In this document: positions 1-38,136 of the stretch, piece by piece | Numbering within the stretch: the first letter of the stretch is position 1 | Layout of the letters: every line of letters begins with the position of its first letter | Assembly (NCBI GenBank): GCA_050013255.1 | Contig: JBEKFP010000002.1 | Coordinates: forward strand, 160,001 to 224,000 | DNA: 64,000 nt | Reading direction: 5' to 3' | Origin: Candidatus Bathyarchaeia archaeon | Lineage (GTDB): Archaea; Thermoproteota; Bathyarchaeia; 40CM-2-53-6 | The notes under the pieces: generated by a model | What the model was told of the DNA's origin: nothing | Databases searched by the model: none | The model's input: the letters and a program-made list of their open reading frames with translations, nothing else | Program-made: the position numbers and the translations under genes

Positions 1-1625
1 TGAACTGGGACAACTACATCTTGCGAACAATGATTCGAATGCTTCTGGCCTACGGGCTATCCGTAGCATTCGCCTTGGTTTACGGGATAACCGCCGCGAT
101 CAGCAGGCGGGCTGAGCAAGTGTTGATACCCATACTGGATGTTCTTCAATCGATTCCAGTATTGGGTTATCTGCCAGGTGCTATTGTTGTCTTTCTGACC
201 CTTTTCAATGGAAGCATTATTGGCCAAGAATTGGCGTCAGTAGTTCTCATTTTCACTGGCATGGTTTGGGCTGTAACCTTTGGTGTTTATGGTGGCGTCA
301 AGACGATTCCGAAAGACATTGTAGAAGCGGCGCGTAGCTTCGGAATCCGTCGATCAAAATACCTTAGGGACGTAGTCTTTCCCGCTCTCTATCCGCCGTT
401 CATTTCAGGTAGCATTCTCGCATGGGGGGGAGGATGGTACTTCCTGATCGCGTGTGAGTATCTTAGCTTCGGAACTACTAGGCCTTACACTCTTCCGGGC
501 TTGGGTTTCTATATTTTCAAAGCCGCTCTTGACGGCAACATTGCTGCGTCTCTTTTCGGGCTCCTCATTCTCATTGCAATTGTGGCACTCATTAATCGGT
601 TCGTCTGGCACCCGTTGATGGACCACGCTGACAAGTACAAGTACGAAAGCACAGCTCTACCCACTCATAGGAAGAGCCAATCACATCTCAGTCAGTGGCT
701 GCTGAGAAAATCGCGGGAGGTTTCCGAAGACCTTGCAAAGGTCGTTGAACCCGTCGTATCCTTAGAACACAAGTACTACGCGCACTCAATTCGTTTTCGG
801 CATGTGAACCTGCTTTCGCATGCGCATATAGGGGCGGCTTGGCACAAGTACAGCCGTTTTGGGCGTATTATCGGTACAGCAATAGGAATATTATTGGTGG
901 TACTATTTTTTGAGCTTCTCGTCCCACCGAAGTTTCCTGAAGCCATTCACCAATTTATGCTACGCCGAGAGCTTGCGATGATTCCGAACTATATGATAGG
1001 TTCAGTGGCACGATTGCTGGTGGGATACTTGATTGCACTCTCATGGACTCTTGTTGCTGGAATTGTCATAGCGAGAAGTGAAAGATTGTTCAACATCATG
1101 CTGCCAATCTTCGACATAGCTCAATCCGTTCCGGCGCTGGCCTTGTTTCCAGTTGTGGTCACGGTCGTGATTGACTATTTCCACGGCTCAGAGTTTGGCC
1201 TGGAATTAGCCTCAACCGTTTTGGTTTTGACTGGAATGCAATGGTATCTTTTGTTCAACATTATAGGCGCAGTCAAAGCTATTCCATCCGACGTGATTGA
1301 AGCCTCACGATGTTTCGGGGTTCGCGGACTCGGGTTCATTAAGAATATTGTAATTCCAGCAATCGTACCCGCAATAATCTTGGGGAGTATTCAGGCTTGG
1401 GGCGGGGGATGGAATGCGACAATAGCCTCGGAATACATCGTGACCTCAACCAAAATCTACCAAGTGCCGGGTCTAGGATACATGCTGGATGTCGCGGTCG
1501 CCAAAGGCGACACCCCCCTCGTGCTGGTCGCGGTCGGTTTGATGGCTGGCGTTGTTTTTCTAATGAACCGCACGGTGTGGCATTATTCGCTGAAACGGGT
1601 TAACAAATACAAGTTTGAGGGGTAG
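1..1625 (+). CDS. ABC transporter permease, NitT/TauT type, with two permease domains; start codon probably cut by the window edge
   Basis: Two hydrophobic halves, each with an EAA motif (IVEAARSFG; VIEASRCFG). Frame is open from nt 3. Followed by an ABC ATPase. Confidence 0.9.
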   Translation, partial: NWDNYILRTMIRMLLAYGLSVAFALVYGITAAISRRAEQVLIPILDVLQSIPVLGYLPGAIVVFLTLFNGSIIGQELASVVLIFTGMVWAVTFGVYGGVKTIPKDIVEAARSFGIRRSKYLRDVVFPALYPPFISGSILAWGGGWYFLIACEYLSFGTTRPYTLPGLGFYIFKAALDGNIAASLFGLLILIAIVALINRFVWHPLMDHADKYKYESTALPTHRKSQSHLSQWLLRKSREVSEDLAKVVEPVVSLEHKYYAHSIRFRHVNLLSHAHIGAAWHKYSRFGRIIGTAIGILLVVLFFELLVPPKFPEAIHQFMLRRELAMIPNYMIGSVARLLVGYLIALSWTLVAGIVIARSERLFNIMLPIFDIAQSVPALALFPVVVTVVIDYFHGSEFGLELASTVLVLTGMQWYLLFNIIGAVKAIPSDVIEASRCFGVRGLGFIKNIVIPAIVPAIILGSIQAWGGGWNATIASEYIVTSTKIYQVPGLGYMLDVAVAKGDTPLVLVAVGLMAGVVFLMNRTVWHYSLKRVNKYKFEG

Positions 1626-10853: not shown

Positions 10854-11513
10854 TTGACCTTTCCAATAGAGAATGAAGCGAACATCAGGCGCAGAATGCT
10901 GGAGCTGTGCCAAACTCATGCGAGGAACGTTGTAGAAATCACTAGGCAATTGGTTGTCCTCCTAGACAACCTGGCAGACAAGAAGCCCAAACTTGCGAAA
11001 GAGAACTACGAGAACATGCTCAAGACTCTGGTGGAGAATGAAAAGAACAAAGCAACGTTCCTTAATGAAGTAGCATCAGTAGGTAGCTTACTCATAAGCA
11101 GGGAAGACTTCCTGCGCCTGCTATTTCGACTTGGCGAAGTGGCAAATTACTGCGAAGCTATGGGCTTCCGGCTGATGGGAGTCGTTGACCTGAAATGGAA
11201 GCTAGACAACAAACGCCTCGAAGAAATATCCCACCTGATGAGTTCGGTACTCAAAGAAATCTCGAAGGTAAGAGAGACTCTTCACTCACTATCATTTGAT
11301 GCCGACAAAGCAGTCGAGACCGGTAAGGCTGTGGAGGATTTGGAGCGCCAGATTGACGCTGAATCACGGCAACTCGATCTAGACCTGATTTCGAGCAAAA
11401 TGCCATTACAAACCTTGCTATTCTTTCGCGACTTGGTAGACCGAGCCGAAAAAATAGCCGACATTGGGGTCGACGTAGTCGACCACATAAGAGTACTCGC
11501 CCTTACGGCATAG
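10854..11513 (+). CDS. DUF47 / PhoU-like phosphate transport regulator family protein
   Basis: SREDFLRL and LERQID...AEKIAD patterns. Confidence 0.7.
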   Translation: MTFPIENEANIRRRMLELCQTHARNVVEITRQLVVLLDNLADKKPKLAKENYENMLKTLVENEKNKATFLNEVASVGSLLISREDFLRLLFRLGEVANYCEAMGFRLMGVVDLKWKLDNKRLEEISHLMSSVLKEISKVRETLHSLSFDADKAVETGKAVEDLERQIDAESRQLDLDLISSKMPLQTLLFFRDLVDRAEKIADIGVDVVDHIRVLALTA

Positions 11514-12085
11514 TGTCGCGGCAAATGAAGAAAACCATCACCGCTGAATTGATCGGAACTAGGCTCATAGTATGGGACCATAAAGACGGACTGGCAATTT
11601 ACAGGATGGGTTTCTTCGGTAAGCCCGTAGGTATTCCAAAACCTAAGCCTGAGCAGGAGTTCAAAGCGCCTCTGGTGCTCGACCTGATGGAGGCCTTGTA
11701 CCTCCTCGACAAAAAGATAATTCGAGTAGTTAACGTCAAGTCCTCTAAACCCGTAAGCCGTGCTATGCTCCTCGCCCTAGCGAACAAGACCTACAAGCAG
11801 TTCAATCTTGGATACAGCGCCTACGAGAACCTGCGTGCGAAAGGGCTGATAGTTACCCCGGGGATAAGATTCGGGGCGGACTTTGCAATATACGAGCACG
11901 GTCCGGGAATCGACCACGCCCCATTCATTGTTACCGTAAAGAAGGAGGAGGAGACGATGGGCCCCTTCGAGGTTGTCCTTGCAGGCCGCCTCGCAACAAC
12001 CGTCCGCAAACAGTTCACGATTGCGGTACCTAAGAGTCGCGGAAAAAAAGTAGACTACCTTGTCTTCCGGTGGTTCAAGGCCTAG
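11513..12085 (+). CDS. endA: tRNA-splicing endonuclease, catalytic subunit
   Basis: LDLMEALYL; PGIRFGADFAIY...HAPF...RLATTVRK (Tyr/His/Lys triad). Confidence 0.93.
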   Translation: MSRQMKKTITAELIGTRLIVWDHKDGLAIYRMGFFGKPVGIPKPKPEQEFKAPLVLDLMEALYLLDKKIIRVVNVKSSKPVSRAMLLALANKTYKQFNLGYSAYENLRAKGLIVTPGIRFGADFAIYEHGPGIDHAPFIVTVKKEEETMGPFEVVLAGRLATTVRKQFTIAVPKSRGKKVDYLVFRWFKA

Positions 12086-31820: not shown

Positions 31821-32215
31821 TCGCCTTCCGTTCTTCGGATGCAGTTGGTAGGCCGAGGGAAAAACTGTTGTGTACCGTGGGTTTCACGGTGTGATTTTTG
31901 GTGGGTAGTTAAACATATTCTGGTTGACTAGATTGGACACACCCAAGCGTCAGGTGTGTCCATTTCCAAAAAGAGGGACAGAGAGCCCCAACCGCCCCAT
32001 AATCCGCGCTGAGGGTACATATGCCTATCAGCTCAGATACCCCAGGTATTATGCACAAGAATGACGGATACCTTTTGACTGCTTGCATCAGCATATCCAC
32101 CTCCCAAGAAAAAACACGAACGGTTGACGGTTTGGCGATTCGCGGTTTTGCTGTTAGGTGGTTAGTTTAGTAGTGGTTTGGTGGTTAGTGGTCCGCGCAT
32201 ACACACGCCTGACAC

Positions 32216-33061
32216 CTAGGTGACGTCTCCCCTCGCTTGACTCTCATCCTGCAGTTTGGCAAGAATCGTTGCAGCGAGATCAAGTGCAACCCTAGCATCT
32301 CGTGAGGAGACGTCACCTGAACCGTGTGCGACCATGTTTCTGATTCGCCAGACAAAAGCTAGCGAATCCGCTGTCATGGGGTCTATAATTGTCTTTGACT
32401 CTAGAAAGCGGTCTAGGTCAAGCACACTGACCCTTTGTTGTGAGTACCCATGCCTCATGGCTAAATCACGCAGGGTTTGTTCCAAATCAATCATCACTCG
32501 CAGGAAAGCCATTTTGGGGTCATCGAGCGACAGAGCCGATTCAACTATGGAATCTACCTTGGCTCGGTTCGCAGGTATTTCCTTAATTTCCTTGGAGAGT
32601 TTGCCTATGTTTATTCTTGATTTCTGGACAATCACAACTGTAAAGAGAAAGCCAATGAGACCCATGACCCAAGAAAACACTGTCTGAATATCCAGACTTG
32701 GAAAATTCGGGATTTTGAATTTCAGAATTTGAGTACCCCAGGCGAAGCCTAACAGGAGAAGACACAAGAACAATCCCGCAGAAACCCACCCCATCATATA
32801 GAGAAACTGTGCAGCTTTGAAAATTCCTCGACTATGTCGTAAAGAAGCAACGCATGTTACAAAAGCTGCTCCGACGAATAATATTACGATTGACAGCAAT
32901 CCCAACGAAAGTGTTCGCAATACATCTGAGACTCCTGCAACAGTTGCAGATAGTCCTATTGCTGCTGCGACGAAACCTATGAGCGTCGCGACTGGTGTTA
33001 AAATGTCACGTGGATGTATCCAGGGGTCTGAATCTGATCCAATGTCTTCTTCGTTACTCAA
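32216..33061 (-). CDS. Multi-TM protein with C-terminal HEPN-like domain
   Basis: 4-5 TM helices, then LEQTLR...RIRNMVAHG (Rx4H). Confidence 0.7.
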   Translation of the reverse strand: MSNEEDIGSDSDPWIHPRDILTPVATLIGFVAAAIGLSATVAGVSDVLRTLSLGLLSIVILFVGAAFVTCVASLRHSRGIFKAAQFLYMMGWVSAGLFLCLLLLGFAWGTQILKFKIPNFPSLDIQTVFSWVMGLIGFLFTVVIVQKSRINIGKLSKEIKEIPANRAKVDSIVESALSLDDPKMAFLRVMIDLEQTLRDLAMRHGYSQQRVSVLDLDRFLESKTIIDPMTADSLAFVWRIRNMVAHGSGDVSSRDARVALDLAATILAKLQDESQARGDVT

Positions 33062-33342
33062 TTCACTCCCCCAAAACCCCTCTCTACTGGACGTCGATTT
33101 CGAAGTCGCAGCAGAAGCTGCAATCCGGAAATGAAGAGGCTTTCCCGCGTTGAAAGCGTTGAATGCGAGGGGGCCCTCCCGCTATCCTTTGCTATGCGCG
33201 GCGTCAATAGCCTAAACATCACAAATCGGCGATAGCCCAATCCTAAGCTTTGAAGCTTGAGCGCGTGTTGTATTTCGTGGACTGACCTGCCAACTCTATT
33301 AGCAAGTTCCTCAAGGTCCTTGTCAAGCACGCTTCGCTTCAT
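33058..33342 (-). CDS. Hypothetical protein, possibly a gene fragment
   Basis: Overlaps both neighbours in the same orientation. Confidence 0.4.
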   Translation of the reverse strand: MKRSVLDKDLEELANRVGRSVHEIQHALKLQSLGLGYRRFVMFRLLTPRIAKDSGRAPSHSTLSTRESLFISGLQLLLRLRNRRPVERGFGGVN

Positions 33343-34621
33343 CTGAACTTGTCTCCATAAGACAGTACACCATTTCTAAGAGAAGCTGTCGTCCTATTGC
33401 GAACGTAGATAGCACTCGGGCTCTAGTATTGATATTCTTCCAATCTTCATCACTTGGGAAGTTGCCGTGCGATGCAATATTGGCAAAAGAAGTGAACGCT
33501 TCAAACCACGCGCGAAGTCGATTGTCGAGGACTTTTTCGTCACAAAGCTTCTTGGCTATATTGTTGATATTTGGTTTCTCAAGCCTTGTAAGGTCAATTG
33601 ACCGTGCTTTCGCTACAACTACCAGGGAATCCTGCACAACAGCACGCAGATCTCTAAGCGCTCCAGCGTAGTCTCTATTCCAAAAAGATTGTTCGGACTT
33701 ACCAAATGAGTCTGATACCTTCGGACCGAAAATTTCGCCAAGGGAGGTCAGCTCTAATCGGTGTAATGCTTCCAAGCCGAAATTATCATCATCTGTATTG
33801 AAGTTTCTAGCCTTTCGAAGCAAGAAACTCTCCAAGGCAGCGTATTCTACGTCATAAGTCTTGACAGTGGTCTTCTCGCCAAGATCGACAATCAATTGCT
33901 CGATGCGTCTATAGTGTTTGTAAGCTCCACCACTGTCTAACCCCGATGAATCGCAAAAGAATATCCATAATCCCTGGGACGCTATACTATCCGCAAGGAT
34001 TGCATAACTATATGATCTATCCCAGAAGTCATCGCTTACGTGTCTGAGCTTTAGAATCGTGACTGGCCCTGAATTTTGAAGACCTCTCATCAGTAATTTG
34101 AACTCGCTCATAGTGGGCCAAGGTTCGAGAGGCGCTCCCCAAACGCGGATGTAATCGTCTCCAAACAAATTCTCAAGGTTTATTGGCTTATGCCGCAGAT
34201 GGAATGTGTAAACAGCCCACGCCGCCCACCGCTCCAAGAATTTCGGGTGCCCACACATCGACGCGATATCTTGCTCAAAATGAAATGGTGGTGCATACTC
34301 TTCGTATGTGATTTCCAGATACGCATGAACCTCTGGATTGATCCTTGCTGCCGAGCCTTCATATTCTAAATCAACGTTGAAGATGAAGCTTGGCCCTGAA
34401 GGGGAGGTTCCAGAAGCTCTAAAGAAGAAGTCTGCTTGACCTTCATACTCTTTCTTAGCGAGTTCTAACGTTTCGGTGTCGATTCCTAGATCTAGAGCTA
34501 TCTGTCGCGCTGCAGGGTCGAACTGTGACTTTAGTCCTTCAACATTGAGACGGACCCTCATTCCAACGTCGCGAAGACTCGTAGTAAACACCTTGGCGAC
34601 ACGAGCATGAACAAGTTCCAC
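33323..34621 (-). CDS. Hypothetical protein with C-terminal HEPN/DUF4145-like helical domain
   Basis: YAGALRDLRAVVQ...FANIASHG. Confidence 0.65.
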   Translation of the reverse strand: MELVHARVAKVFTTSLRDVGMRVRLNVEGLKSQFDPAARQIALDLGIDTETLELAKKEYEGQADFFFRASGTSPSGPSFIFNVDLEYEGSAARINPEVHAYLEITYEEYAPPFHFEQDIASMCGHPKFLERWAAWAVYTFHLRHKPINLENLFGDDYIRVWGAPLEPWPTMSEFKLLMRGLQNSGPVTILKLRHVSDDFWDRSYSYAILADSIASQGLWIFFCDSSGLDSGGAYKHYRRIEQLIVDLGEKTTVKTYDVEYAALESFLLRKARNFNTDDDNFGLEALHRLELTSLGEIFGPKVSDSFGKSEQSFWNRDYAGALRDLRAVVQDSLVVVAKARSIDLTRLEKPNINNIAKKLCDEKVLDNRLRAWFEAFTSFANIASHGNFPSDEDWKNINTRARVLSTFAIGRQLLLEMVYCLMETSSDEAKRA

Positions 34622-34652
34622 AACTAGTATTTTACCCCAACTAGTATTTTAC
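34621..34652. repeat. Tandem direct repeat CAACTAGTATTTTAC x2
   Basis: Identical 15-mers at 34621-34635 and 34638-34652. Confidence 0.9.
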
Positions 34653-34795
34653 TTTCTTTGAGCTCTCGGAGTGGCTGGTTTTCGTCTGCGTGGTTTTATG
34701 GTTGCATTGGATGTGTGAATTTCTTGTGTGGTTTGAGTTTGAGGCCTGATGAGGATACTGTGTTGGATTCTATGTTGACGGTTGCTGGGAAGTTG

Positions 34796-35098
34796 CTACT
34801 CCTGGTTGAAGCGGCGCCCGGATGCAAGTGTGGTGGTAACTGCGGGTTTTGCTGTTTCAGGTTCGTTCCGTTCGTAGGCTCTCACCTTGGCCTCTAGGGC
34901 GAGCTTGGTGATCGTCCAATCTTCCACCTGCTCCTGCGTCGACTTCAACTGATCCTTAAAGCGAATCGCATCCTCAGCATTGCCCGGCAGCGATCGCCTC
35001 ATCCTCTTCCGCGCCAAATTTGCAAGTTCCGAGTTAGCGTTCCTGATCTTCAACTTCGCATCATCCAGGCGCCTCTGACATTCTTGTCTTACAGGCAT
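34796..35098 (-). CDS. Coiled-coil hypothetical protein
   Basis: ATG start, heptad-like charged sequence. Confidence 0.5.
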   Translation of the reverse strand: MPVRQECQRRLDDAKLKIRNANSELANLARKRMRRSLPGNAEDAIRFKDQLKSTQEQVEDWTITKLALEAKVRAYERNEPETAKPAVTTTLASGRRFNQE

Positions 35099-35300
35099 GG
35101 TTCACAAACAATGGTATGGGGATGTCACGCGTGACAGGAGGGCGATCACACGCAGGTGCATTCGAAGTGTTCCACGTTCAACTCGTTGCAGAGGTCAACG
35201 ACCATGTAGTTGGTCCCCGGCGACTAACTACATGGTCAGGAGGCATGACGGCCGGGAGGCCCTACCCCCCCAGGGGGGGTGTCAGACATCCAAATATTAG

Positions 35301-35450
35301 GTGTCGGACAGGCAGCTCCCTGGGCGTAACCCGCTCCCACCCCTGCTGTTTATGCTGCCACCACATTCACCGGTTGAAGTGGGACCGGTTCACCTTCCGC
35401 GTATCAATATCCAAACGACCAAGCCAAAACCCCACAGGATCCTCAGGAAC
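35301..35450 (-). pseudogene. Fragment resembling the N-terminus of an archaeal tyrosine integrase
   Basis: Hand translation VPEDPVGFWLGRLDIDTRKVNRSHFNR*MWWQHKQQGWERVTPREL; in-frame TGA; ~100 nt downstream of the tRNA CCA. Confidence 0.4.
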
Positions 35451-35547
35451 CCGCCCCCCACACGCCGCACAAGACGCAACGAAGCAGGCTGGGACATGTT
35501 CGTTATCCCACGCGGGTAACCAAGTCCAAGTAATTAACAAGGACCGT

Positions 35548-35707
35548 TGGTAGCCCGGGGGAGATTCGAATTCGGGGTTGTGTCCACCTCTCCCGTCGGC
35601 AGGTCTCTCCTCTGGTGGAGGGATCCAGAGCCTTCTATTGGCTGATATCTGGCGCCAATGCTATGCATAGTCCCACGTGTGTGGATTGACCACTACACCA
35701 CCGGGCT
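35548..35707 (-). tRNA. tRNA-Gln(CUG) with four introns (21/22, 29/30, 37/38, 53/54); CCA encoded
   Basis: Exons 35707-35686, 35666-35659, 35632-35625, 35604-35590 and 35570-35548 join into a 76-nt cloverleaf AGCCCGG TG GTGT AGTGGTCAA GCAT A GCAGG CT CTG GA CCTGC CGAC GGGAG TTCGAAT CTCCC CCGGGCT A CCA. Confidence 0.9.
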
Positions 35708-35732: not shown

Positions 35733-35749
35733 CTTATCTTAAGATTTCG
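35733..35749 (-). promoter_or_regulatory. Putative BRE/TATA promoter of the tRNA
   Basis: CGAAATCTTAAGATAAG on the - strand, ~30 nt upstream of tRNA position 1. Confidence 0.5.
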
Positions 35750-35814
35750 TTGGATTAAGCAAAGCGTAGCATGTCCAAACTGCATTGAAGATAACTTAGA
35801 ATAGGTAGACCTGT

Positions 35815-36618
35815 TTGAATGAAGAGAGAGTAACCTTGAGCCGTAAGGGGTCCCCAATGTCCCTTCAGCTTGTAATGACCGCCATGAACGCGGCCGTTTA
35901 CGCTGGCATTGGAGCCCTATGGACCGCTTTCCCCCTGCTAATCTTCGGAGTGAGATTCTGGCCCCAAGTGTTCGTGCCCGCCACTTTCAGCGTGCTCTTT
36001 GGCCCTTGGGTAGGCGGGGTCGGCGCGGCAATCGGTATTTTCCTCGCAGACGTGATCTATGGTCATCACGACGCCCTCCTAAGTTTCCTAGTTGGGGTTC
36101 CATCAAATTTCATTGGATTTTTCGTCATCGGTTGGTTAACTCGGAGGAGTTATCGAGGAATAGCAAAACGCCTTCTCATCACCGCCAGTCTGGTCGTTCA
36201 ACCAGTCTATGCATTGGCGTTAGCTTATGGCCTATACGTGCTCCTTGGAGCCGCCAGTCTTGGCTCACCCAACTCTTACCTGGGATTAGCGGGATTATTC
36301 GTCGTATTTGTCTTACTTGCCTTATTCCTCCTTCGCAACAAGTGGGCTGATTTTGAAGTTGCAGCGTCGATCGGCCTTGCGATTGGGACTGGGATTATTG
36401 GAGTAGGAATTGTTGTGTACAGCGCGATTTTCGGTCTGCCTTTAGCCGTTGGGCTTGGCACGAAACCGCTGAGTAACATTTTCGTCTACGTCGTGGCGTC
36501 ATCAAATTATTTTTCGGAGATTCCTTTCATGGTCATACTTACTCCACCTGTTGTGGCGGCATGTCGGGCAGCCTTTCCGAGTTTGCGCGGCCTCGTTCCT
36601 AACCCGCCAAAGAAATAA
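35815..36618 (+). CDS. ECF transporter S component (QueT-like)
   Basis: GVRFWPQVFVPA.F..LFGPWVGGVGAAIG.FL.D. Confidence 0.8.
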   Translation: MNEERVTLSRKGSPMSLQLVMTAMNAAVYAGIGALWTAFPLLIFGVRFWPQVFVPATFSVLFGPWVGGVGAAIGIFLADVIYGHHDALLSFLVGVPSNFIGFFVIGWLTRRSYRGIAKRLLITASLVVQPVYALALAYGLYVLLGAASLGSPNSYLGLAGLFVVFVLLALFLLRNKWADFEVAASIGLAIGTGIIGVGIVVYSAIFGLPLAVGLGTKPLSNIFVYVVASSNYFSEIPFMVILTPPVVAACRAAFPSLRGLVPNPPKK

Positions 36619-36631
36619 CGGGCTCTAATCA

Positions 36632-37579
36632 TTGCCAGCCTCCGAAGCAACATGCCCGGCTGGCATTTCGAGTTTCTTCGAAGTATGTGAAACGGACCAC
36701 GCCGGAAACTCGATCATCGATCCCGCTCGAATCGGTGCCAGGGGCGGAGGCTTCGCAATCGCCAACGGAGTAACATCAAAGGTAACAACTAGAAAGGCAT
36801 CGAAGTCCCGGGTCAACATCCGTATCAATTCAAAACCTGCACCAGAGGCACAAACCACTCGATGGGCCATTAATAAAATCCTGAGAACAGGAGGAGCCGT
36901 CGTGGAGGTTCATGTGGATTTGAGGCTCAGAGTACCAATCGGAGCCGGTTTCGGAACTAGTGCCGCAGGCACTTTAGCAAGCTGCTTAGCCTTGGCGGAC
37001 GCGCTTAATTTTCCGATGACCCTGAACGATTTGGGGCGGATAACGCATATCGCTGAAGTTGTAAACAAGACGGGCCTGGGAACTGCGTCGGCGATGTTGA
37101 CCGGCGGTTTTGTTCTAGTTACAGAACCTGGGGCGCCCGGCATCGGTTCAGTGGATCGGTTGTTGTACCCTGAAGACCATGTGGTACTGTGTGCTTACCT
37201 AGGCCCTATCTCAACCCGCGATGTCCTCTCTCGGTCGGACTTGGCCAACAGGGTCAATCCTGCGGCGCGCAGAGCGATGGCCAGTATCCGCCAGAAACCG
37301 GAATTGCACACGTTTCTGAGCGAGGCACGGCAATTCGGTGAAACGGTCGGTTTCCAATCCCCCAATGTTGCACGTCTGATTGAAGCAACGGTCTCGGCAG
37401 GGGCTGTTGGCGCAGCACAGAATATGATCGGCGAAGCAGTCCACGGGGTGATTCATAGTGACAAAGCTAACCGGGCGCTCGTCAAACTTCGAAAAGAATT
37501 CCCCTCAGCTACGATATTTGTTAGCAATCTAGATACGAGGGGCGTTCGCCTGGTAGAGCGAGCCAATCCAAAGCACTAA
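36632..37579 (+). CDS. Pantoate kinase (GHMP family)
   Basis: CPAGISSFF, PIGAGFGTSAA, HIAEV..KTGLG, QNMIGEAV. Confidence 0.85.
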   Translation: MPASEATCPAGISSFFEVCETDHAGNSIIDPARIGARGGGFAIANGVTSKVTTRKASKSRVNIRINSKPAPEAQTTRWAINKILRTGGAVVEVHVDLRLRVPIGAGFGTSAAGTLASCLALADALNFPMTLNDLGRITHIAEVVNKTGLGTASAMLTGGFVLVTEPGAPGIGSVDRLLYPEDHVVLCAYLGPISTRDVLSRSDLANRVNPAARRAMASIRQKPELHTFLSEARQFGETVGFQSPNVARLIEATVSAGAVGAAQNMIGEAVHGVIHSDKANRALVKLRKEFPSATIFVSNLDTRGVRLVERANPKH

Positions 37580-37617
37580 ATGCGTTCTACCACCAGCACC
37601 GAGAGCGTTGCATTGCG

Positions 37618-38136
37618 ATGGTGCGGCAGGTAAGTCAAAAGCGTAAGCAAGTCGGATCAAAGCCGCAGGAGAGATACCGCGTCGTCGCTATGGGCGGTAC
37701 CTTTGATGTCCTGCACAGAGGTCACAGGAGGCTCCTAAAGCAAGCCTTCAGTATCGGGCGGAGGGTTATGATCGGAATCACTAGCGATGAGTTTGCGAGG
37801 ACACTGCATAAGCCTCACAGATTTGACGCCTACGCGAAAAGGAAGAGAGACGTTGAGCGTCTACTCTCGCGGTGGGGCGTGTTGTCAAGAGCGGAAATTG
37901 TTCCGTTAACCGATCGTTATGGGCCTACGGTTCGTGAATCAAAAATCCAAGCGCTTGTTGTGAGTCGACGTACGCTCCAAACAGCGTACGAGATAAATGC
38001 TCGAAGGAAAGCCCACGGCCTGAAACCACTAATCCTCGATCCGATCGATTTGATTATGGCGGAGGACAGGCGCCCGATATCATCGACGCGAATTCGTCGT
38101 GGGCGTATAGACCGCGAGGGCCGTCTGCTCCAATAA
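37618..38136 (+). CDS. coaD: Phosphopantetheine adenylyltransferase (archaeal)
   Basis: GGTFDVLHRGH, GITSDEF, DRYGP, ISSTRIR. Confidence 0.9.
   Translation: MVRQVSQKRKQVGSKPQERYRVVAMGGTFDVLHRGHRRLLKQAFSIGRRVMIGITSDEFARTLHKPHRFDAYAKRKRDVERLLSRWGVLSRAEIVPLTDRYGPTVRESKIQALVVSRRTLQTAYEINARRKAHGLKPLILDPIDLIMAEDRRPISSTRIRRGRIDREGRLLQ

Follow-up and report, generated by a model that had tools for sequence, protein, structure and literature searches.

How does an archaeal cell obtain a functional tRNA from a gene that is interrupted at four positions and contains two exons of only 8 nt? This question is raised by a locus in a 64,000-nt stretch of the genome of an uncultured Candidatus Bathyarchaeia archaeon, hereafter called the window. 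Proteins with at least 90% identity to the products of neighboring genes carry the label Candidatus Bathyarchaeia archaeon. In a preliminary description, a tRNA-Gln(CUG) gene of 160 nt was placed at positions 35707-35548 on the minus strand, and all coordinates given there proved correct. As discussed below, this is very probably a functional single-copy gene, whose promoter-driven precursor would be cut by the endonuclease EndA and joined by the ligase RtcB, intron by intron.

Architecture of the gene and identity of its product

The gene consists of exons of 22, 8, 8, 15, and 23 nt and introns of 19, 26, 20, and 19 nt, arranged in transcriptional order as follows, with the supporting sources in brackets:

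35686-35707, minus strand: exon 1, 22 nt, tRNA positions 1-21, starting with A1 (ARAGORN, parser, relatives)
35667-35685, minus strand: intron 1, at 21/22, 19 nt, HBh' motif, central helix 4/4, intron helix of 4 bp (parser, shuffles)
35659-35666, minus strand: exon 2, 8 nt, tRNA positions 22-29 (ARAGORN, parser, intronless orthologues)
35633-35658, minus strand: intron 2, at 29/30, 26 nt, central helix 2/4, intron helix of 4 bp (relatives mostly 3/4 or 4/4)
35625-35632, minus strand: exon 3, 8 nt, tRNA positions 30-37, anticodon CTG at 35628-35626 (ARAGORN, parser)
35605-35624, minus strand: intron 3, at the canonical site 37/38, 20 nt, hBHBh' motif, central helix 4/4, intron helix of 2 bp, exon helix of 5 bp post-splicing (parser, shuffles)
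35590-35604, minus strand: exon 4, 15 nt, tRNA positions 38-53 (ARAGORN, parser)
35571-35589, minus strand: intron 4, at 53/54, 19 nt, central helix 4/4, the fastest-diverging intron (12 relatives)
35548-35570, minus strand: exon 5, 23 nt, tRNA positions 54-76, CCA encoded (ARAGORN, parser)

Removal of the four introns yields a 76-nt product, which ARAGORN identifies as tRNA-Gln(CUG); its four stems are all paired, and it contains canonical D- and T-loops, the discriminator, and CCA. Besides the anticodon CUG, the spliced product has the A1-U72 first pair that is typical of archaeal tRNA-Gln, and both features are shared by the intronless Gln genes of the class. The unspliced gene gives no ARAGORN call and no Rfam match at E-values up to 1, which bears out the expectation that standard finders miss it.

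When the ARAGORN threshold is lowered, unspliced or partly spliced sequence is called Gly, Ala, or Asp. Such calls could mean that the true parse has fewer or different introns, e.g., a tRNA-Gly or tRNA-Ala read from intron sequence, or that the Gln match is due to chance. However, a purpose-written parser, which combines alignment of the DNA to an archaeal tRNA profile set by hand with scores for stem pairs and with intron jumps weighted by the quality of the BHB motif, arrived at introns at 21/22, 29/30, 37/38, and 53/54 without having been given the previously proposed junctions. This parse scored 73.3, i.e., 5.6 points ahead of the next one (67.7), whilst 25 interior shuffles of the gene scored at most 18.9. 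Furthermore, two genomes of the same class contain an intronless gene (L271 and L272) that departs from the predicted product at only 2 of 76 positions, with all four junctions joined exactly as predicted, and the L271 gene scores 61.6 bits on RF00005. The match at 74 of 76 positions refutes a different parse, the probability of which is negligible. Thus, the proposal that a cloverleaf of 76 nt is obtained only after the removal of four introns is upheld by ARAGORN on the spliced product and by the junction-blind parser, and the intronless orthologues place the junctions at the same positions.

The quality of the BHB-type junctions differs between the introns. The central helices pair at 4 of 4 positions in intron 1 (GGTC/GACT), intron 3 (CTCT/GGAG), and intron 4 (CGGG/CCCG) and at 2 of 4 in intron 2 (ATAG/ATAG), and the BHB scores of introns 1 to 4 are matched by shuffled introns at frequencies of 0.0002, 0.025, 0.0006, and 0.001, respectively. 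In introns 1, 3, and 4, the 4-bp central helix is flanked by 3-nt bulges and accompanied by one or more outer helices (shuffle P 0.0002-0.001), and the central helices are kept across 20-36 distinct orthologous introns. Intron 2 has both outer helices (4 bp and 3 bp), and in 27 of 32 distinct orthologous introns its central helix has 3/4 or 4/4 pairs.

Two other kinds of interrupted gene were considered and rejected. The five exons are collinear within 160 nt, which excludes a split (trans-spliced) or permuted tRNA gene. Group I and group II self-splicing introns are excluded by the size of the introns, 19-26 nt as opposed to a core of hundreds of nt, and by the lack of an Rfam match.

Upstream region

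A putative promoter is located upstream of the gene:

35735-35750, minus strand: BRE-like CGAAA followed by the TATA box TTAAGATA (TATA at 35742-35735), a motif kept in the genus

We take this combination to be a promoter from general knowledge of archaeal promoters. The TATA box ends 27 nt before the tRNA, implying a leader of ~5 nt, and the BRE/TATA-like motif ends 26-28 nt upstream of the gene in all 17 members of the genus. A single precursor of ~165 nt would thus be transcribed. A scan for sigma-70 promoters found none, but such a scan is not applicable here. A mimic of the acceptor strand at approximately -18 was considered as part of the leader and rejected, given that the TATA box would place the transcription start downstream of it. 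The acceptor 5' strand is also found as near-exact copies 12-25 nt upstream of several tRNA genes with an intron at 8/9 or 10/11, including those for Glu-CUC (C1:26576), Asn (C1:66517), Trp (C2:632631), and Cys (C2:242760), where C1, C2, and C3 are contigs of the genome.

The region upstream of the tRNA-Gln(CUG) gene is common to the relatives in the genus. At 35815-38136 on the plus strand of the window, divergent from the tRNA, it encodes an ECF S-component-like membrane protein, a pantoate kinase, and a phosphopantetheine adenylyltransferase.

Copy number and the tRNA set of the genome

The preliminary description had suggested looking for another tRNA-Gln(CUG) gene. The genome-wide parse revealed no second one in the genome, and the joined sequence of exons 1, 2, and 3 is found neither in this genome nor in the 58 other genomes of the family that were searched. 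ARAGORN reports a "Gln(ctg)" gene at C1:1132371-1132501 (+), but the parser assigns this gene to Gly(GCC), with one intron at 45/46 and another at 29/30 that likewise has only 2 of 4 central pairs. The codon CAG accounts for 6488 of the 14436 Gln codons (45%) in long open reading frames. Gln(UUG) is encoded by a separate gene with two introns at C1:1380967.

The parse of the whole genome, which is heuristic in that the weights were set by hand, the boundaries in other tRNAs are approximate, and some long variable arms are read as introns, gave ~45 distinct tRNA genes, to which ARAGORN adds Asp and Val-GAC. By this census, ~45 of the ~47 genes are interrupted, and only those for Arg-CCG and Asp appear to be intronless. 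Seven genes parse with four introns, i.e., those for Glu-CUC, Lys-UUU, Leu-CAG, initiator Met, Pro-CGG, Pro-GGG, and Gln-CUG, and that for Trp-CCA parses with five, so that about eight genes would have at least four introns. Examples of multi-intron loci, as heuristically parsed, are the following:

C2:632656-632884, plus strand: multi-intron tRNA locus
C1:291457-291268, minus strand: multi-intron tRNA locus
C1:26560-26410, minus strand: multi-intron tRNA locus
C3:122293-122472, plus strand: multi-intron tRNA locus

With so many genes interrupted, and about eight of them at least four times, standard annotation misses or mislabels much of the tRNA set; in the present case, ARAGORN overlooks the Gln(CUG) gene and assigns its identity to the Gly(GCC) gene. 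By eye, the four introns of the Gln(CUG) gene do not resemble copies of other introns in the genome.

Several tRNA-like remnants were observed as well. An Ile2-like tRNA copy at C1:12752-12622 (-) has a damaged T-loop, and its anticodon could not be parsed with certainty; it is possibly a pseudogene or a duplicate. In the window, a weak 14/17 copy of the 3' end of tRNA-Gln(CUG) is found at 31846-31862 (-), 3.7 kb downstream of the gene, with 0.15 such matches expected by chance. The open reading frames in the intervening segment (31900-35500) have no match in Pfam or NCBIfam, and the copy and these frames may represent a decayed element integrated at exon 5. At C3:~190-234 (+), near the contig end, a degenerate tRNA-Gln 3' end (19/23) follows a sequence ending in CCGAA like intron 4; possibly, it is a displaced fragment of an attachment site.

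Conservation among Bathyarchaeia

The layout of the gene varies within the class. Among the distinct Gln(CUG) genes recovered from it, 13 have the present layout (21/22, 29/30, 37/38, and 53/54), three have introns at 21/22, 29/30, 37/38, and 59/60, four at 10/11, 29/30, 37/38, and 53/54, and 12 at 29/30 and 37/38 only; others contain one or three introns, and 22 are intronless. Intron 1 is missing from related genes, e.g., L024 and L153. In the 12 relatives with the same layout, the introns are 47-96% identical to those described here, whilst the exons are unchanged in 11 and carry one change in the other. Intron 4 diverges fastest (47-79% identity), but its central helix is never lost, and the intron bases that form the central helices are kept even in the most diverged introns. 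The occurrence of zero to four introns on a nearly unchanged tRNA body in relatives may help to trace intron gain.

Intron 2 has 2/4 central pairs in five, 3/4 in 23, and 4/4 in four of the 32 distinct introns. Because relatives have 3/4 (CTAG) or 4/4 (CTAT, CTGT) pairs at the same site, the state of intron 2 looks, in this sequence comparison, like decay of an ordinary motif.

In three members of the same genus (L017, L018, and L019), the T-arm intron is located at 59/60 rather than at 53/54 (window 35589-35571). Introns at both sites end near CCCGAA, which suggests either a slide over 6 nt or replacement of the 3' part of the gene. Another orthologue (L012) has a garbled T-loop with CCCGAA present twice and no clean parse (score 51.8), which may point to misassembly, to a pseudogene, or to a stage midway through the intron slide.

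Putative splicing enzymes

Cutting by EndA and joining by RtcB constitute an established pathway (PMC4090602). The genome contains two EndA genes, one of which is located in the window:

11513-12085, plus strand: catalytic alpha subunit (190 aa) of the splicing endonuclease that probably acts on the tRNA-Gln(CUG) precursor; has a Crenarchaea-specific-type loop (CSL) and scores above the endA cut-off

This subunit is closest to structures from Aeropyrum and Sulfolobus, including the loop region with its conserved lysine, a loop reported to allow cleavage of relaxed motifs (PMC6379350). The second gene, on contig C1 near 302 kb, matches beta-subunit models below their cut-offs and is classified as beta-like. 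RtcB is encoded in the genome as well. Hence, as judged from the predicted proteins, the genome encodes a broad-specificity alpha/beta EndA, i.e., the type that acts on relaxed, non-canonical motifs, together with the ligase. The RtcB matches (L261 and L262; C1:110968-113778, minus strand) fall into two pieces within a single open frame of 1039 aa, as would be seen if the tRNA ligase carried an intein-like insertion.

Predicted order of splicing

The alpha/beta-type EndA would cut each intron at its BHB-like junctions, and RtcB would join the exons, one intron at a time. In a nearest-neighbor model that treats the RNA without modifications, pseudoknots, or protein, the ensemble cost of forming the strict motif in the full precursor amounts to 4.6, 11.0, 11.4, and 5.7 kcal/mol for introns 1 to 4, respectively. 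Upon removal of intron 1, the cost for intron 2 becomes 9.3 kcal/mol, and upon removal of intron 2, that for intron 3 becomes ~8.7 kcal/mol; removal of intron 3 does not help intron 2. In 34 of 37 orthologues, the 37/38 motif likewise becomes cheaper once intron 2 has been removed. Introns 1 and 4, which have the cheapest motifs, would therefore be removed first, followed by intron 2 and finally the canonical intron 3. In this exact form, the order is predicted with little more than even confidence.

The preliminary description had proposed ordered splicing on the grounds that the outer helices of introns 2 and 3 are complete only after upstream splicing. The direction of this effect is right, but the helices are lengthened rather than created, from 2 to 3 bp for intron 2 and from 3 to 5 bp for intron 3. 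A stronger argument for an order is the overlap between the two motifs: G31 and C32, which form part of the exon helix of intron 2, are also needed for the helices of intron 3. The motif of intron 2 also requires the D-stem to be opened. Because the motifs share bases, introns 2 and 3 would not be cut simultaneously, and the 8-nt exon with the anticodon would be kept from loss. The shared bases and the trend among the 37 orthologues lend modest support to ordered splicing, which is plausible in the model; such ordering is already known from another system (see below). The gene offers a compact natural substrate to study how the two enzymes deal with splice motifs that overlap around an 8-nt exon and yet retain this exon.

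Two points count against the model. First, 9-12 kcal/mol are needed to form the strict motifs of introns 2 and 3, whose equilibrium probability is near zero; these values mark the limits of the folding model, and protein binding or non-canonical pairs must be invoked. Second, the 2/4 central pairs of intron 2 fall below the relaxed class defined in a recent preprint (Goswami et al., 2026, bioRxiv 10.64898/2026.10.13.758758). An exact search of JGI metagenome contigs found neither the fully joined form nor a form that retains intron 2 and lacks intron 3, which says nothing on expression. An overly loose pattern scan of genome contigs gave chance matches, and matches in viral contigs were likewise attributed to chance.

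The poor central helix and the high folding cost of intron 2 could also indicate that the gene is a decaying pseudogene, or that intron 2 is no longer removable in this lineage, in which case CAG would be read by another tRNA, such as tRNA-Gln(UUG). UUG isoacceptors are often able to read CAG by wobble, and the genome has the separate gene for this tRNA mentioned above. However, the exons of 11 of the 12 same-layout relatives are unchanged whilst the introns drift, the same 2/4 helix occurs in five distinct introns flanked by intact exons, and the promoter is conserved. This alternative is, hence, very improbable. The tRNA-Gln(CUG) gene is real, conserved, and probably essential.

A conserved hexamer in intron 2

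Within intron 2, one segment stands out by its conservation:

35648-35653, minus strand: loop hexamer GCCAGA of intron 2, invariant in the family

It is present in all 46 genomes of the family, from four genera, in which intron 2 was found, whereas the intron otherwise varies in length from 26 to ~42 nt and differs in its stem; GCCAGA is the only 6-mer common to 27 distinct introns. Its last five bases, CCAGA, are perfectly complementary to U33-G37 in the tRNA itself. In two other families, TCAGA or CTAGA is found, which preserves the pairing by wobble, whilst seven genes from three further families contain both introns but not the motif.

Perhaps, intron 2 is not merely passive. The hexamer together with an upstream GG can pair with bases 33-37 and across the junction of intron 3. 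It might thereby serve as an internal splint or guide, holding the 8-nt exon in place or timing the removal of introns 2 and 3, perhaps even once intron 2 has been cut out. Besides the conservation of the hexamer despite the differences in length and stem and its wobble-compatible variants, the predicted duplexes with the exon 3 region (-8 to -10 kcal/mol) are in favor of such a role, as is the pairing probability of 0.6-0.99 in 13 of 15 genes of one genus (g1) once only intron 2 remains. In the genera g2 and g3, however, pairing in cis is mostly not predicted, and upon in silico mutation of CCAGA, the median shift in the cost of forming the intron 3 motif is only 0.0-0.3 kcal/mol, which gave no support to the idea that CCAGA blocks this motif in the intact precursor. 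The motif-free genes retain both introns, and the partner bases are invariant, so that covariation cannot reveal the pairing. By eye, no such complement is present in the other tRNAs of the genome with introns at 28-31, so that no general anti-anticodon rule was seen for anticodon-stem introns. For any given hexamer, complementarity to five bases of the anticodon loop is expected with a probability of roughly 6/1024, a figure to be read with the post hoc choice of the partner in mind. The intron lacks a C box and is too short for a C/D-box guide, a role that was therefore rejected.

Taken together, an active role of intron 2 of this kind is unlikely, albeit not far-fetched, and it is more doubtful still that the 29/30 intron carries a selected anti-anticodon guide that splints or shields the 8-nt exon during the processing of two competing introns. 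The folding models point to no clear role of GCCAGA in cis. Its conservation is real, and the candidate causes are a guide or splint, a protein-binding site, or a relic of an inverted duplication. If a guide role were true, a short, protein-spliced tRNA intron would act on the splicing of its neighbor, and no such case was found in the literature searched. The conserved anti-anticodon hexamer is a specific, testable feature.

Comparison with known multi-intron tRNA genes

In older papers, three introns per tRNA gene was the maximum. An example is found in the Thermoproteales, where the tRNA-Pro(UGG) gene of Pyrobaculum islandicum contains introns at 25/26, 37/38, and 56/57; also, 29/30 and 53/54 are listed as known intron positions (PMC4090602). 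As in the Thermoproteales, the introns in the tRNA-Gln(CUG) gene are cis-spliced BHB introns at canonical and non-canonical sites, and the alpha2-beta2 EndA of that order resembles the alpha/beta-type enzyme predicted here. In contrast, near-identical intron copies are common in the Thermoproteales, whereas the introns described here, judged by eye, are not copy-like.

Ordered removal has been described for the tRNA-Ile(UAU) of Cyanidioschyzon merolae, which has three introns: RT-PCR showed that the 37/38 intron is removed last and that the order follows the stability of the motifs (PMC3728597). The order predicted by the model for tRNA-Gln(CUG) would also end with 37/38. However, a eukaryotic enzyme is involved in C. 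merolae, and the motifs fold independently there, whereas introns 2 and 3 of tRNA-Gln(CUG) would compete for the same exon bases.

The number of four introns, the novelty of which was implied in the preliminary description, is no record. A search for catalogued cases returned four introns in the Arg-TCT, Ile2-CAT, and Leu-GAG genes of Freyarchaeia and in the Trp-CCA gene of Atabeyarchaeia-2 (Valentin-Alvarado et al., 2024, PMC11291895, Supplementary Data 4), and up to five introns per tRNA gene, with 30% missed by tRNAscan-SE, have been reported in Asgard archaea (Goswami et al., 2026). These cases remove the novelty of the number and leave the other claims about the gene untouched. The literature search, the coverage of which was incomplete, yielded no paper on multi-intron tRNAs in Bathyarchaeia, and the text of the 2026 preprint never mentions this lineage. 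Like the Asgard genes, those of the present genome include cases with four short introns per gene, many introns lie at non-canonical positions, and many genes are missed by standard annotators; the proportion of interrupted tRNA genes, more than 90% in Asgard genomes, is similar as well. In contrast, the Asgard Gln-CTG genes in the 2024 table contain zero to two introns, as opposed to the four described here. With the tRNA-Gln(CUG) gene, a phenomenon already described elsewhere is thus seen in Bathyarchaeia as well, a lineage outside both Asgard papers.
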